Below are positions 22,718-35,202 of a stretch of DNA of 64,000 bases, piece after piece. Within the stretch, counting starts at the first letter, position 1. Each line of letters begins with the position of its first letter. The notes below the pieces were generated by a model. The model was given only the letters and a program-made list of their open reading frames with translations. It was not told the origin of the DNA and did no database searches. Source of the DNA: Escherichia phage Ptacy1532; sequence record PQ863255.1; one strand, 5' to 3'. The position numbers and the translations under genes were made by a program.

Positions 22718-24562
22718 TTAGTGCGTATGCATCCAGTTTAGTCCAATCTGACAATCAGAAGCCAGAGGACATTCCATGTTCAAATATTCACCCGCTTTCT
22801 TAACACAAAGCTCAGTGTGTTCTTTGAGTTTCTGTACATCATTACGATTCACTGAGAATTGGCCCTCATCGTGCATATCAATTACCTTAGCACAACGAAC
22901 CCTATCCCTCTCAATCCACTTGTTTAGGAACATCATAGCATATTTCATAACAACAGCACCAGCACATTGCAGGAGAGTGTTAAGTGCTTTATGAACCATA
23001 ACCTTACCAGTGGCATCTCGTCTCATTGTAATCTTACGACCATCAACACCAATCAAGTATCCTTGAGCAGCTTTCTCTGTCATACGATCAATGAGGATTG
23101 CAATACATGGGTTCTCTGCCAAGAAACGTGCTCGCATCACTGAACCTTCGTCAGCCCCACCACCTACAATTGAACCAAGCTTAGCGTCTCCAGCACCGTA
23201 GTTGAATGCATAGATAAACGTTTTAGCATTGTCACGAGTAGGAAGACCAGCAAGTTTCTGGTTGTGGGAGTGGATATCGCCTTCAAGGAGGATATCACGA
23301 TACATAATAGCAGAAGCTAAACCACGTTCTGCCAGAGCTTTCTTAGCTGGATTGTTTTCTTCTATTGCTTCAGCAAGCATATCCCTACACTCTTTAATGA
23401 GGTAGTGAGCGAGCATACGAAGCTCAAGTCCAGAACCATCATACCCTAAGAATACTTCTTTACCAGCGGGTATGTAATATTTGTAAGCACCTACAGGTTT
23501 GTCTTTCTTCCCCGGCTTACCTTTCTCGTAAATTACGTTAGTACCTTTTCGTATATAACAACCATCAGGAACAACGTTAGTAATAACGAAAGGACGAGAA
23601 TGATCACTGTCTGAGTTATAGTCAGACTCAAACAGACTGCGACACTCGTGACCAAACAGACCACGGGAGGGAATATTAACCACGATACGATGTTTGAATC
23701 GAAAAGTCGGAGTAGCGCAGCTGTTAGCTTCTGCCGAAAGTTTACCATCTTCGCGTTCCTTTGCTATGAGTCCACTGATAAGACCTAGCCTGTGAGCCGC
23801 TACAACGCGTCTCTTAAGCAAACTTCCGACACTCCCTAGCTCACCCCCTAGCCCCTCTTCAAGAGTCTCCTCGAGGTTTGTAGGAGCTGTAGGCCACTTG
23901 TTTGATGTGGCTAGTGCTTTCTTAATCTCATCAAACGTTACAGGATTACGACGATTAGGGTTCAATCCCAAACCAAATACGTAAGCCTTCATATAGTTCT
24001 TAGTCTTAAACCTGAAATGCTTTTCTAAGAACTTCTTAATATCAGCGTCAACCATCTCGGCTGTCTGCTTCTGTTTAGTATTGCCTCGCATCCAAGCAGT
24101 GTACCATGCTTGATACGTTCCATACTTTCTCATATCTTTCTTAATTTCGAAAGTATTCCAAGGCTTCTTAGATACATTAAACTCTGGAGGAAGAAAGCCC
24201 TCATCCATAAGAGCTTCTTTAACTCGAGCATCTTTCGATGGGTCAAAGTCTACGTATTCAACACAGGTGAAAGCTCCACCAATATCTTCTCTTTTCAGCC
24301 CAACCCTATCACAATAGGCTTGAGGCCACTTCTGTAAAGCTCCAGACTTCTTAAACGGCTTCATATAAGTAGAGCCGTCTAATCTCATCTTAGGTAAGAG
24401 AGGAATCAACTCTCTGTCAATATTAACAATAATCTCTTTAAGGAGGTGAACATACCACCGAGCATTTCTTCGGTTGAAACTCACTCCGTGCTTTGCTTGC
24501 TTAGAGATTATATCAGCGACAGTCATCTCTGTCAAAAATGGAAGAGCGTCCGGGTTGCTCAC
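22718..24562 (-). CDS. DNA polymerase (family A, T7 gp5-like) polymerase domain
   Basis: SGLELRMLAHYL and GDIHSHNQKLAGLPTRDNAKTFIYAFNYGAGDAKLGSIVGG match T7 DNA polymerase motifs A/B; no 3'-5' exonuclease domain in this ORF. Confidence 0.9.
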   Translation of the reverse strand: MSNPDALPFLTEMTVADIISKQAKHGVSFNRRNARWYVHLLKEIIVNIDRELIPLLPKMRLDGSTYMKPFKKSGALQKWPQAYCDRVGLKREDIGGAFTCVEYVDFDPSKDARVKEALMDEGFLPPEFNVSKKPWNTFEIKKDMRKYGTYQAWYTAWMRGNTKQKQTAEMVDADIKKFLEKHFRFKTKNYMKAYVFGLGLNPNRRNPVTFDEIKKALATSNKWPTAPTNLEETLEEGLGGELGSVGSLLKRRVVAAHRLGLISGLIAKEREDGKLSAEANSCATPTFRFKHRIVVNIPSRGLFGHECRSLFESDYNSDSDHSRPFVITNVVPDGCYIRKGTNVIYEKGKPGKKDKPVGAYKYYIPAGKEVFLGYDGSGLELRMLAHYLIKECRDMLAEAIEENNPAKKALAERGLASAIMYRDILLEGDIHSHNQKLAGLPTRDNAKTFIYAFNYGAGDAKLGSIVGGGADEGSVMRARFLAENPCIAILIDRMTEKAAQGYLIGVDGRKITMRRDATGKVMVHKALNTLLQCAGAVVMKYAMMFLNKWIERDRVRCAKVIDMHDEGQFSVNRNDVQKLKEHTELCVKKAGEYLNMECPLASDCQIGLNWMHTH

Positions 24563-24578
24563 TTTATACTCCTTTAAA

Positions 24579-25001
24579 TTATTGGTAAAGTAAATCTGTA
24601 AATGCTTGGTTATCTTCTACCACACCTAACATGGTAGCTTCATCACTATAAGCTCTAACCGACCCATTGACAACTGTCCAAGGAGGGGGCGGAGGAGGTG
24701 TATGTGTAGCTCTGGCTTCACGAGGTTGTTCTCGTACCAGATGAGCCACAACTCTCTGATTAGCAACCTCTTCCCTTTCTCGAATAGCTCTTTGAATGTA
24801 AGCCAGCTTCATACCCCAAGCTTCTTCAAATTCTTGAGGGTGCTTATCGCTGATAACCACATACTGACGTTCAGGAATACCAGAGCGAATCTCTGATAAT
24901 AATTCATGGAACAGGTCCAGTTCGTGCTCAGTGAGATTCATTTCAATATCATCCCACTTGAGAACTAGGAAACGGTTTTGGTGTCTAGCTGGTAATGGCA
25001 T
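24579..25001 (-). CDS. hypothetical protein (contains PPPPPP tract)
   Basis: 140-aa ORF immediately upstream of the polymerase gene. Confidence 0.45.
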   Translation of the reverse strand: MPLPARHQNRFLVLKWDDIEMNLTEHELDLFHELLSEIRSGIPERQYVVISDKHPQEFEEAWGMKLAYIQRAIREREEVANQRVVAHLVREQPREARATHTPPPPPPWTVVNGSVRAYSDEATMLGVVEDNQAFTDLLYQ

Positions 25002-25002
25002 C

Positions 25003-25161
25003 CTACTCCACCTCTACTTCAATGTAAGTTCTCTCTCCAACATCGTCTTTTAAGACCCATGACTTGGCATCTTCTTCCGACTTAAAAGCTTTCACAACGC
25101 TGTATCCGCCTTCCCATTCATCACCGAACCAGCGCTGTCCTACGTAAATGTATTCTTTCAT
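25003..25161 (-). CDS. small hypothetical protein (about 52 aa)
   Basis: ATG 3 nt after the stop of 25165..25449; stop 1 nt before the next ATG. Confidence 0.3.
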   Translation of the reverse strand: MKEYIYVGQRWFGDEWEGGYSVVKAFKSEEDAKSWVLKDDVGERTYIEVEVE

Positions 25162-33323: not shown

Positions 33324-33332
33324 TCTTATTCC

Positions 33333-34643
33333 TTAGTTATTTGTTTCCATGTCAAAAGAGATTCCACGACCCGCTTCATCGGCAAACCGATCATCGAGAC
33401 TGTGACTGACAGTATCAGCAAGTTCTTCATGAGAGGGAATGTCAAGACTACCTACCACATCTTGAGCAGAAGCTTCATCAGTCCAGATAACACGAGAAGG
33501 GGCGTTGATATCACCAACAGCAAAACCCTGACCAGAGAACTGGTGACGGCTAATAGTCAAACCATTTGATCGACCACGAGAAGGACTAGACATCCATCTC
33601 TCCATAGAATCACTTGTAATGCCAAGAGCTTCTTCAAAAGATGTTCTACGAGAAGAGCTTAGATTTCGTGCTTCATTTGCTCGGCGTCTTGTAGGGGCTA
33701 CAAACACCCCTTCGATTGCGTTATGACGACTAGGCTCTTCTTCTCTACCAAGCAAATCACCACCCGTGTTAGTCGTTAAATTTGTCAACCCTTCAGACCA
33801 ATACGCATAAATTTGACCAGACCCATGAAGACTTGACATAATCTGAATCTCTTCATAGGGGATTCCAAAGAATCGACTCATGTCACGGTTAACGCAATAC
33901 TGAGCACTTGTTGTATCCTCAATAAGAGAAACCTGACCTAATCCATTAACCAGATGACTAACTGGCTGAGGTGTAGGAAGGTATCGAGTTTGGGCCATAT
34001 ATTGATATGCAACAGATGGAGCTGAGAATCTCAACACTTGTGAATTAGGCCACTTTTTGTGAACGTATCTGATTTCACGACTAGAAACAACCACAGGGCA
34101 AGGAGCGGTCATAGCTAAATACCCATGAGGGGTCATGAATAAGTTGTCAAGAGTCATCGCACCACGGCACATCATAGGAAAATTATCCAGAACCTCTTCA
34201 ATAGAAGTAGGATAATTAAACATGAACTGGATACGAGTTCCATTCCACTGAAACTCAATAATATCAGTGAACGTTAATTGAGAAGTCCCTGTGTATGGCT
34301 CATCTGTAGCTTCAGCAAGAAGTGACGAATATTCAATATCTTGTGACTCAAGCCACTCCTTCACGTTACTTTCAATTTCTCTTCCAAGAGCTTGCCAATG
34401 ATCAGTTGATGTGAAAGTATTTTGGGTTCTTGGTGTTTGTCCTCTGACAATAAAGATATCAATGTCATGTGGAGCTGTGTTGTTAAGGACAGCATCACGA
34501 ACAGCCCCACCAGTAATGATGGGACAGATACCGTCTGGAATCAAGTTGTTGTTAATCAACTGTTCAATGAAGTGACGACCAACAGTGATATCAGGTTGTT
34601 GAGCAACCTTATCTTCAATTCGGTTAATCGGGATAACAATCAT
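33333..34643 (-). CDS. nucleotidyltransferase (poly(A) polymerase / CCA-adding enzyme-like head domain) with long C-terminal extension
   Basis: Track ORF trimmed to the ATG after the exo-gene stop; GGAVRD ... DIDIF matches the class-II nucleotidyltransferase head motif. Confidence 0.55.
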   Translation of the reverse strand: MIVIPINRIEDKVAQQPDITVGRHFIEQLINNNLIPDGICPIITGGAVRDAVLNNTAPHDIDIFIVRGQTPRTQNTFTSTDHWQALGREIESNVKEWLESQDIEYSSLLAEATDEPYTGTSQLTFTDIIEFQWNGTRIQFMFNYPTSIEEVLDNFPMMCRGAMTLDNLFMTPHGYLAMTAPCPVVVSSREIRYVHKKWPNSQVLRFSAPSVAYQYMAQTRYLPTPQPVSHLVNGLGQVSLIEDTTSAQYCVNRDMSRFFGIPYEEIQIMSSLHGSGQIYAYWSEGLTNLTTNTGGDLLGREEEPSRHNAIEGVFVAPTRRRANEARNLSSSRRTSFEEALGITSDSMERWMSSPSRGRSNGLTISRHQFSGQGFAVGDINAPSRVIWTDEASAQDVVGSLDIPSHEELADTVSHSLDDRFADEAGRGISFDMETNN

Positions 34644-34644
34644 T

Positions 34645-35202
34645 TTACATTTTCCAATATAATGAAGGTGGGTCGTAAGGGTCAAATCCTGTGAGTTCAC
34701 ACAAGAAAAGATAAACCTTAACAGTTAAGTTAACGTCCTGTTCACAATAAGTAAACATATCTTCAGTGAAAGCATCCCATGCTTCCTCTTGCTCACCATA
34801 ATCGCCCTTAAGTTCTCCTAAGAACTCACCCCACTGCTTCAAACCATGACCTCTTGGGCCACGTCTAGGGTCGCCTTTCGGATACTCAGGACTGTCACCA
34901 ATACGGTCAGGTTTAAGATATCGACTAAGACATAAAGTGTCAAAGACGTTAAAACGATATTCAATTAGATTAGGATACATTTTCTTCAGAGCACAAAGGT
35001 CGAAGTCAATAATATTATGACCCACGAGCACATCTGCTTCTGTCAGTTTACGAATCCCGTCTTCGATTTGGTGAGGCCGATAGCCCCACCTTTCACCAGT
35101 TTCAACATCGAAGATATAAATACACCATACTTTAGTTATGTCATCGTACAGTGCATTACTCTCGATATCGAATGCAAACACTTTCTTCTTTTTCTTTACC
35201 AC
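34645..35202 (-). CDS. DNA polymerase 3'-5' exonuclease domain (T7 gp5 N-terminal domain homolog) as a separate gene
   Basis: FDIES (Exo I), GHNIIDFD (Exo II) and YCEQDV (Exo III) in the order and spacing of T7 DNA polymerase residues 1-190. Confidence 0.8.

Follow-up and report, generated by a model that had tools for sequence, protein, structure and literature searches.

In Escherichia phage Ptacy1532, a DNA polymerase of the T7 gp5 type is encoded by two separate genes, one for the 3'-5' exonuclease and one for the polymerase. This was found in a stretch of 64,000 nucleotides (nt) of sequence record PQ863255.1, called the window here, which lacks roughly 13 kb of the phage genome; searches within the genome cover the window only. 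The exonuclease is a stand-alone protein of 185 amino acids (aa) encoded at 34645..35202 (-) and corresponds to residues 2 to ~200 of T7 gp5, while the polymerase subunit of 614 aa, encoded at 22718..24562 (-), corresponds to gp5 residues 205-704. The region 22718-35202, in which every gene lies on the minus strand, matches 98 phage records, all of them from Escherichia or Shigella phages. The best DNA matches were the Escherichia phages Ptacy1479 and vB_EcoP_WFI101126 (WFI101126 below), with 95-97% identity, and the identity to phiEco32/SU10/YF01-type genomes (Kuravirus and allied genera) was 86-97%. The records among these matches that were examined all belong to the Gordonclarkvirinae (Kuravirus or Nieuwekanaalvirus). 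The E. coli podophage from which the window originates is a Kuravirus of the phiEco32/SU10-like type. The GC skew is negative from ~16 kb of the window on.

The two open reading frames encode the two parts of a T7-type polymerase

The preliminary description of the window had assigned the three Exo motifs of the N-terminal domain of gp5 to a 185-aa open reading frame (ORF) at 34645..35202. This ORF could be found and the motifs are present. With the motifs defined as DxE (Exo I), NxxxD (Exo II) and YxxxD (Exo III), the residues D12 and E14 of Exo I, H62, N63 and D68 of Exo II and D156 of Exo III were invariant in 42 homologs, and Y152 of Exo III was at least 90% conserved. The protein passed the gathering threshold of the Pfam family DNA_pol_A_exo1 (PF01612) with 34.6 bits compared to a cut-off of 23.6, and phmmer aligned it with residues 3-178 of T7 gp5 (E 2e-11). 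T7 gene 5 polymerase was its sole sequence match in the PDB at E-values up to 1. A profile built from the 42 homologs aligned to gp5 residues 2 to ~200 (probability 99.8, E 3e-29). The AlphaFold2 model (predicted local distance difference test, pLDDT, 93) has an RNase H-like fold, and its best PDB match was the exonuclease domain of T7 gp5 (E 1e-10, query template modelling score, TMq, 0.67-0.72). In the PHROG collection, the protein belongs to the annotated exonuclease-subunit family, with matches to phrog_38876 (E 1e-78) and phrog_403 (E 9e-38). Judged from its sequence, the ORF is a complete DEDDy 3'-5' exonuclease of the T7 gp5 type with predicted activity. The ratio of non-synonymous to synonymous substitutions (dN/dS) was 0.11-0.13 in comparison with SU10 and Bas90, which indicates purifying selection.

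The exonuclease gene directly follows the primase-helicase gene, as had been described before and as is the case in T7, where gene 5 follows gene 4. Its GTG start codon overlaps the stop codon of the primase-helicase gene by 7 nt (GTGGTAA) and is preceded by GGAG 7 nt upstream. Because the exonuclease lies in the -1 frame here, a primase-helicase/exonuclease fusion produced by a -1 frameshift was considered; it was ruled out, as a slippery heptamer is absent.

The 614-aa ORF at 22718..24562 was confirmed to contain the polymerase motifs only. It matched Pfam DNA_pol_A with 81.8 bits (cut-off 34.3) and T7 gp5 with an E-value of 1.4e-32 by phmmer. A 53-sequence profile aligned to gp5 residues 205-704 (hhalign, probability 100, E 6e-61), with residue 3 of the ORF opposite residue 205 of gp5, and no exonuclease domain is present in the same polypeptide. 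The residues D375, E380, R382, R443, K447, Y451, H564, D565 and E566 of motifs A, B and C were invariant in the 53 sequences. The AlphaFold2 model had a pLDDT of 90, and its best Foldseek matches in the PDB were all T7 DNA polymerase (E 1e-25, template modelling score 0.57). Thus, the ORF is a family A DNA polymerase of the T7 gp5 type that lacks the exonuclease domain. Compared with SU10 and Bas90, its dN/dS was 0.015-0.02, again indicating purifying selection, and its GTG start codon is preceded at 6 nt by a strong ribosome-binding site, AAGGAG.

A perfect sigma-70 consensus promoter was observed inside the 5' end of the polymerase ORF (24507..24535, -), 27 nt past the start codon and in the same orientation. 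Its elements are TTGACA, a 17-nt spacer, TATAAT and the TG of an extended -10 region, and the codons with which it overlaps (L-T-E-M-T-V-A-D-I-I) are conserved. The promoter is identical in SU10, Bas90 and WFI101126 and degenerate in KBNP1711 and Aeromonas phage 4_4572.

The two genes tile gp5 and are separated by about 30 genes

The exonuclease and the polymerase together cover gp5 from end to end, and the break between them coincides with the interdomain linker. On one full-length polymerase profile of the PHROG collection, phrog_17, the two proteins adjoin at positions 667-826 and 836-1233. The split proposed in the preliminary description is therefore borne out by the alignment of both ORFs to T7 gp5, and the same arrangement was found in every relative that was examined. 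The distance between the genes, given before as about 9.4 kb with about 25 genes, was measured as 10,082 nt (24563..34644) with about 30 minus-strand ORFs; WFI101126 has 30 annotated genes between the halves and SU10 has 23.

No paralog or fused exonuclease-polymerase copy could be detected in the window when both proteins were used in tblastn searches. In the complete annotated genome of WFI101126, one polymerase gene, one exonuclease gene and a separate 5'-3' exonuclease gene are present and no fused copy is annotated. Thus a full-length ORF carrying both domains was found neither in the window nor in the annotated closest relative, and the homology of the 185-aa protein to the exonuclease domain holds. 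Rfam identified no intron in the window, and no remnant of an intein or intron was seen at the boundary, where none is expected because about 30 independent genes lie between the halves. The results support the view that a T7 gp5-type polymerase is encoded here in two separated halves, one per ORF. That the fission took place, that it is conserved and that both genes are intact is close to certain.

The split is ancient

A word search for homologs of the exonuclease yielded 59 proteins with identities down to 33%, all of which were stand-alone proteins of 101-247 aa. An exhaustive search of representatives at 50% identity resulted in 2,663 hits. Two of the best 150 were already included in the word search; the remaining 148 consisted of 97 fused exonuclease-polymerases, 39 short stand-alone proteins and 12 others, and the four top-ranked representatives were stand-alone. 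For the polymerase, none of the 114 closest homologs (the split clade) contained an exonuclease domain by phmmer, and the first fused homologs turned up at ~43% identity.

A neighbour-joining tree, which is a simple distance tree, was calculated from 74 polymerase domains and 410 columns, rooted on T7 and with 20 fused outgroups added. The exonuclease-less polymerases were monophyletic in 86 of 100 bootstraps, with six fused proteins as their sister group, and the group consisting of this clade and the six fused proteins was recovered in all 100. The split clade spans Kuravirus, 7-11-like, Vp_R1-like and LUZ24-like phages. Across the clade the gene order is conserved: primase-helicase, exonuclease, a variable block, polymerase and, further downstream, the 5'-3' exonuclease. 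It is concluded that the split is ancient.

The size of the variable block differs considerably. The gap between the exonuclease and polymerase genes is 8,634 nt in SU10, 8,746 nt in Bas90, 9,582 nt in Aeromonas phage 4_4572, 10,041 nt in WFI101126 and, with the linear record closed end to end, ~19.5 kb in Vibrio phage Vp_R1. In the LUZ24-like phage PSP30, unlike in Ptacy1532, only five small genes (1,660 nt) lie between the halves. In the larger genomes the block contains mostly genes of nucleotide metabolism (dCTP deaminase, ThyX, PhoH, ribonucleotide reductases, NAMPT and phosphoribosyl pyrophosphate synthetase). The polymerase gene of the nearest fused relative is located after a primase-helicase gene and a ligase gene. 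Since the polymerase of this fused relative and T7 gene 5 both follow the primase-helicase, the exonuclease half is the one that has retained the ancestral position, with genes accumulating between the halves.

Inserts and putative partners of the split polymerase

Compared to gp5, the polymerase of Ptacy1532 contains three inserts, at residues 137-225, 323-366 and 391-418. The first of these, a helical insert of 58-89 aa at the position of gp5 residues 363/364, was present in 47 of 47 sampled split-clade polymerases, whereas 0-12 residues are found at this position in all 27 fused relatives, including T7. In the AlphaFold2 model it is confidently predicted as five helices in the thumb region. 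No homolog of this insert was detected in the PDB or Pfam. The insert at 323-366 is largely specific for the split clade, and that at 391-418 is limited to the Kuravirus, 7-11 and Vp_R1 side. The insert at 137-225 may be a new observation. The fission and this insert map to the same branch and therefore count as a single correlated event and not as independent evidence. Even so, the insert is the most evident candidate for a surface on which the exonuclease could dock. Tentatively, and with some doubt, it could be proposed that the insert was gained with the fission and docks the free exonuclease, possibly together with the phage thioredoxin, so that a three-protein T7-like holoenzyme would be formed in which an evolved interface replaces the covalent link.

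T7 gp5 uses the host thioredoxin through a 76-aa loop of the thumb (residues 262-338). In Ptacy1532, residues 61-136 of the polymerase align weakly to gp5 ~270-363; in contrast to T7, the segment at the position of the loop is shorter and predicted to be folded, and the phage has its own thioredoxin. This protein (30316..30597, -; Pfam Thioredoxin, E 2e-13) has a CAPC active site and is a candidate processivity partner of the polymerase. A phage thioredoxin has been proposed in this role (PMC7881722), and in the proteome of SU10 thioredoxin was found together with the polymerase (PMC4281155).

The primase-helicase (35196..36986, -) is a T7 gp4-like protein of 596 aa with a match to Pfam DnaB_C (E 1e-10) and a weak one to Toprim_2, and it is annotated as such in SU10 and Bas90. 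Its C-terminal tail (35196..35320, -) is acidic and ends with W. The tails of the homologs are all acidic, and their last residue is F in T7 gp4, Vp_R1 and the fused relative, Y in 4_4572 and I in PSP30. In T7, the acidic tail of gp4 docks on gp5. The acidic, aromatic-ended tail of the Ptacy1532 protein is consistent with a comparable docking on the polymerase.

Weighing of alternative explanations

Could the two halves have been acquired independently, so that an exonuclease-less polymerase and an unrelated DnaQ-like nuclease share the replication module by chance? Stand-alone DEDD nucleases are common in phages, and the 39 short stand-alone proteins among the 148 new representatives are interleaved with fused ones. 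However, in both sequence and fold the best solved-structure match of either ORF is T7 gp5, to which they correspond in adjacent, non-overlapping parts, both tile one PHROG profile, and the split clade has fused proteins as its sister group. An independent origin is thus very improbable. The probability is practically negligible that the split reflects faulty sequencing or assembly, a pseudogene or an interruption by a mobile element, with an intron or intein restoring one protein. It is true that the polymerase gene of relatives has itself been hit by mobile elements: in KBNP1711 an endonuclease gene divides it into parts of 454 and 139 aa, many N-terminal polymerase fragments of 445-460 aa occur in metagenomes, and the polymerase gene of LUZ24 contains an intron (PMC3517423). 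In Ptacy1532, however, the halves are about 30 conserved, separately translated genes apart, the same arrangement occurs in every genome of the group that was examined and in more distant genera, each ORF has its own start signals, both are under purifying selection, Rfam identified no intron and the break falls in the interdomain linker.

The probable explanation is that the gene for a T7 gp5-type family A polymerase was split long ago at the linker joining its 3'-5' exonuclease and polymerase domains and that the exonuclease acts as a bound proofreading subunit. In this explanation the exonuclease half stayed behind the primase-helicase gene, to which it is translationally coupled, and the polymerase half now lies downstream of an accumulated block of mostly nucleotide-metabolism genes. 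Most likely, the 185-aa protein would be the proofreader of the exonuclease-less polymerase, held non-covalently in the replisome much as epsilon works with alpha in E. coli DNA polymerase III, with the phage thioredoxin and the acidic, aromatic-ended tail of the helicase presumably in their T7 roles. That the exonuclease binds the polymerase stably is, taken by itself, favoured to a modest degree. Several points weigh against this explanation. In a first neighbour-joining tree with T7 as the sole outgroup, the six fused proteins were nested inside the split clade. The dN/dS of the exonuclease is about six times that of the polymerase. In SU10 the exonuclease (CDS75) belongs to the early block CDS69-125 and the polymerase (CDS51) to the middle block CDS25-68 (PMC4281155). 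In Ptacy1532 two terminator-like hairpins separate the genes, one with an 11-bp stem at 30976..31004 (-), detected by a consensus scan only, and one upstream of the polymerase gene at 25746..25771 (-), which is the counterpart of an annotated terminator in NC_070991. Given the two blocks and the two hairpins, the synthesis of exonuclease and polymerase is not obviously coordinated. A match to the promoter consensus of the phage sigma factor at 26430 likewise speaks against tight coupling. The alternative to a subunit assembled in trans is a free exonuclease without a stable association with the polymerase. It would either correct mismatched 3' ends in trans once the polymerase has dissociated or have another early function alongside the primase-helicase, such as the processing of 3' ends or the degradation of host DNA. 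Its coupling to the primase-helicase and not to the polymerase, its looser constraint, its place in the early block and the hairpins all suit such a role. On the other hand, the closest homologs of the exonuclease outside the clade, 97 of the 148 new representatives among the best 150, are exonuclease domains of fused family A polymerases, every genome of the clade that was examined pairs the exonuclease with an exonuclease-less polymerase in conserved synteny, and early transcription in SU10 is said to continue into the middle genes (PMC4281155). A free-standing exonuclease is considered rather unlikely.

Neighbouring genes and transcription signals

The first gene of the intervening block encodes a nucleotidyltransferase (33333..34643, -; 436 aa from ATG 34643; phrog_12715, E 3e-237) that has a weak match to the PolyA_pol (CCA-adding/poly(A) polymerase) head domain and is conserved in Kuravirus. 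The longest ORF at this position is 455 aa long, and its apparent overlap of 56 nt with the exonuclease gene is an artefact of choosing the longest ORF. From the sequence, the start is most likely ATG 34643, 1 nt past the stop codon of the exonuclease gene, in agreement with the annotation of relatives.

Most of the other genes that had been named for the block could be identified. These are dCTP deaminase (32790..33323, -; Pfam DCD, E 3.5e-34), a Dps/ferritin-like DNA-binding protein (31012..31623, -; Pfam Ferritin, E 3e-7; Dps-like in the annotation of relatives), the thioredoxin described above, the flavin-dependent thymidylate synthase ThyX (29198..29854, -; Pfam Thy1, E 6e-44) and a PhoH-like ATPase (26811..27554, -; Pfam PhoH, E 4e-56). 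The proposed HNH-AP2 endonuclease was confirmed in its HNH part: the 159-aa ORF between thyX and the thioredoxin gene (29847..30326, -) matches Pfam HNH_3 (E 7e-7), and an AP2 domain was not detected by Pfam even at E-values up to 10, while the C-terminal part appears AP2-like by eye. Since the ORF is missing at this site in SU10, Bas90 and WFI101126, it probably represents a homing endonuclease that was inserted in this genome specifically. A further protein of 118 aa (28096..28452, -) corresponds to a single domain of NAD-dependent DNA ligase, the NAD+-binding domain Ia (Pfam Nlig-Ia, E 2.5e-35). It is labelled 'NAD-dependent DNA ligase' in relatives despite having no adenylation domain, and it may modulate the host LigA.

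Outside the block, a separate 5'-3' exonuclease of 272 aa is encoded at 15852..16670 (-), in the position of T7 gene 6. It is assigned by the annotation of relatives and matches Pfam 5_3_exonuc_N weakly (E 6.5e-6, below the cut-off). A single tRNA gene is located at 51768..51839 (-; Rfam tRNA, 59 bits), and its counterpart in WFI101126 is annotated as tRNA-Arg.

The middle/late promoter consensus of the phiEco32 sigma factor gp36 and the positions of the promoters have been reported (PMC8948821). An exact match to this consensus, TAATGTATA, is located at 26430..26438 (-), upstream of the gene-58 equivalent. Other matches were observed at 20015..20023 (-), 31938..31946 (-, one mismatch), 10218..10226 (+) and 20087..20095 (+). 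The minus-strand matches are located upstream of the counterparts of genes 40, 58 and 68, approximately where the middle promoters of phiEco32 have been reported. Across the window, matches with one mismatch were no commoner than expected by chance.

Comparison with known systems

The split arrangement is already known for this group of phages. In all LUZ24-group phages the polymerase and the proofreading 3'-exonuclease are separate genes (PMC3517423), and the same separation has been reported for phiEco32, as cited in PMC3517423. Separate genes for the polymerase, the 5'-3' exonuclease and the 3'-5' exonuclease have been described for all Kuravirus-like phages as well as for 7-11, Privateer, Vp_R1 and BUCT695 (PMC9965538). 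In GenBank records such as that of Bas90, and in the PHROGs, the small protein is named 'DNA polymerase exonuclease subunit', and in SU10 both ORFs are labelled DNA polymerase. No biochemical study of a complex between the exonuclease and the polymerase was found in the literature that was searched.

In phiEco32, SU10 and YF01 (Kuravirus and allied genera) the same genes occur in the same order. Compared to SU10 and Bas90, Ptacy1532 has the extra HNH ORF between thyX and the thioredoxin gene and a gap of 10.1 kb instead of 8.6-8.7 kb. The LUZ24-group phages PSP30, tf and PaP3 have the same fission and the same order of primase-helicase, exonuclease, polymerase and 5'-3' exonuclease, and they share with Ptacy1532 the upstream aminotransferase and gamma-glutamyl cyclotransferase genes, as seen in PSP30. 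The LUZ24-group polymerase is ~40% identical over its full length and has the 137-225 insert but not the 391-418 insert.

The split polymerase resembles T7 gene 5 in its fold and in the catalytic motifs of the exonuclease and polymerase domains. In both phages the position after the primase-helicase is the same, and the helicase has an acidic tail that ends with an aromatic residue. In contrast, T7 gp5 is a single polypeptide of 704 aa, whereas Ptacy1532 has two polypeptides and three inserts. The alpha (DnaE) and epsilon (DnaQ) subunits of E. coli DNA polymerase III are a functional analogy only, as a replicative polymerase without exonuclease that has a separate proofreader of the DEDD family; alpha is a family C polymerase and unrelated to family A, and epsilon is the separate proofreading subunit.

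The polymerase of KBNP1711 (Nieuwekanaalvirus) belongs to the same family and is also in pieces; its break is located near motif B inside the polymerase domain and is absent in the window of Ptacy1532. At this locus (1501..4126) and in many metagenomic relatives, the polymerase is cut near motif B into an N-terminal part of ~450 aa and a C-terminal part of ~140 aa. In KBNP1711 the break is occupied by a 150-aa endonuclease ORF with non-coding flanks of ~190 nt. Rfam detected no group I intron at the interrupted locus. The break looks like the insertion of a mobile element.

The finding leaves existing knowledge unchanged, as the separate genes are already part of the literature and of standard annotation vocabularies. 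A T7-type polymerase that naturally lacks the exonuclease and has a detachable proofreader is of possible interest for biotechnology. In these phages genes of nucleotide metabolism seem to be inserted preferentially into the space between the halves, which has a size of 1.7 to ~19.5 kb. The split is of modest value as a natural experiment in the domain fission of a well-studied enzyme and could show how a family A replicative polymerase keeps its fidelity with a separate proofreader.

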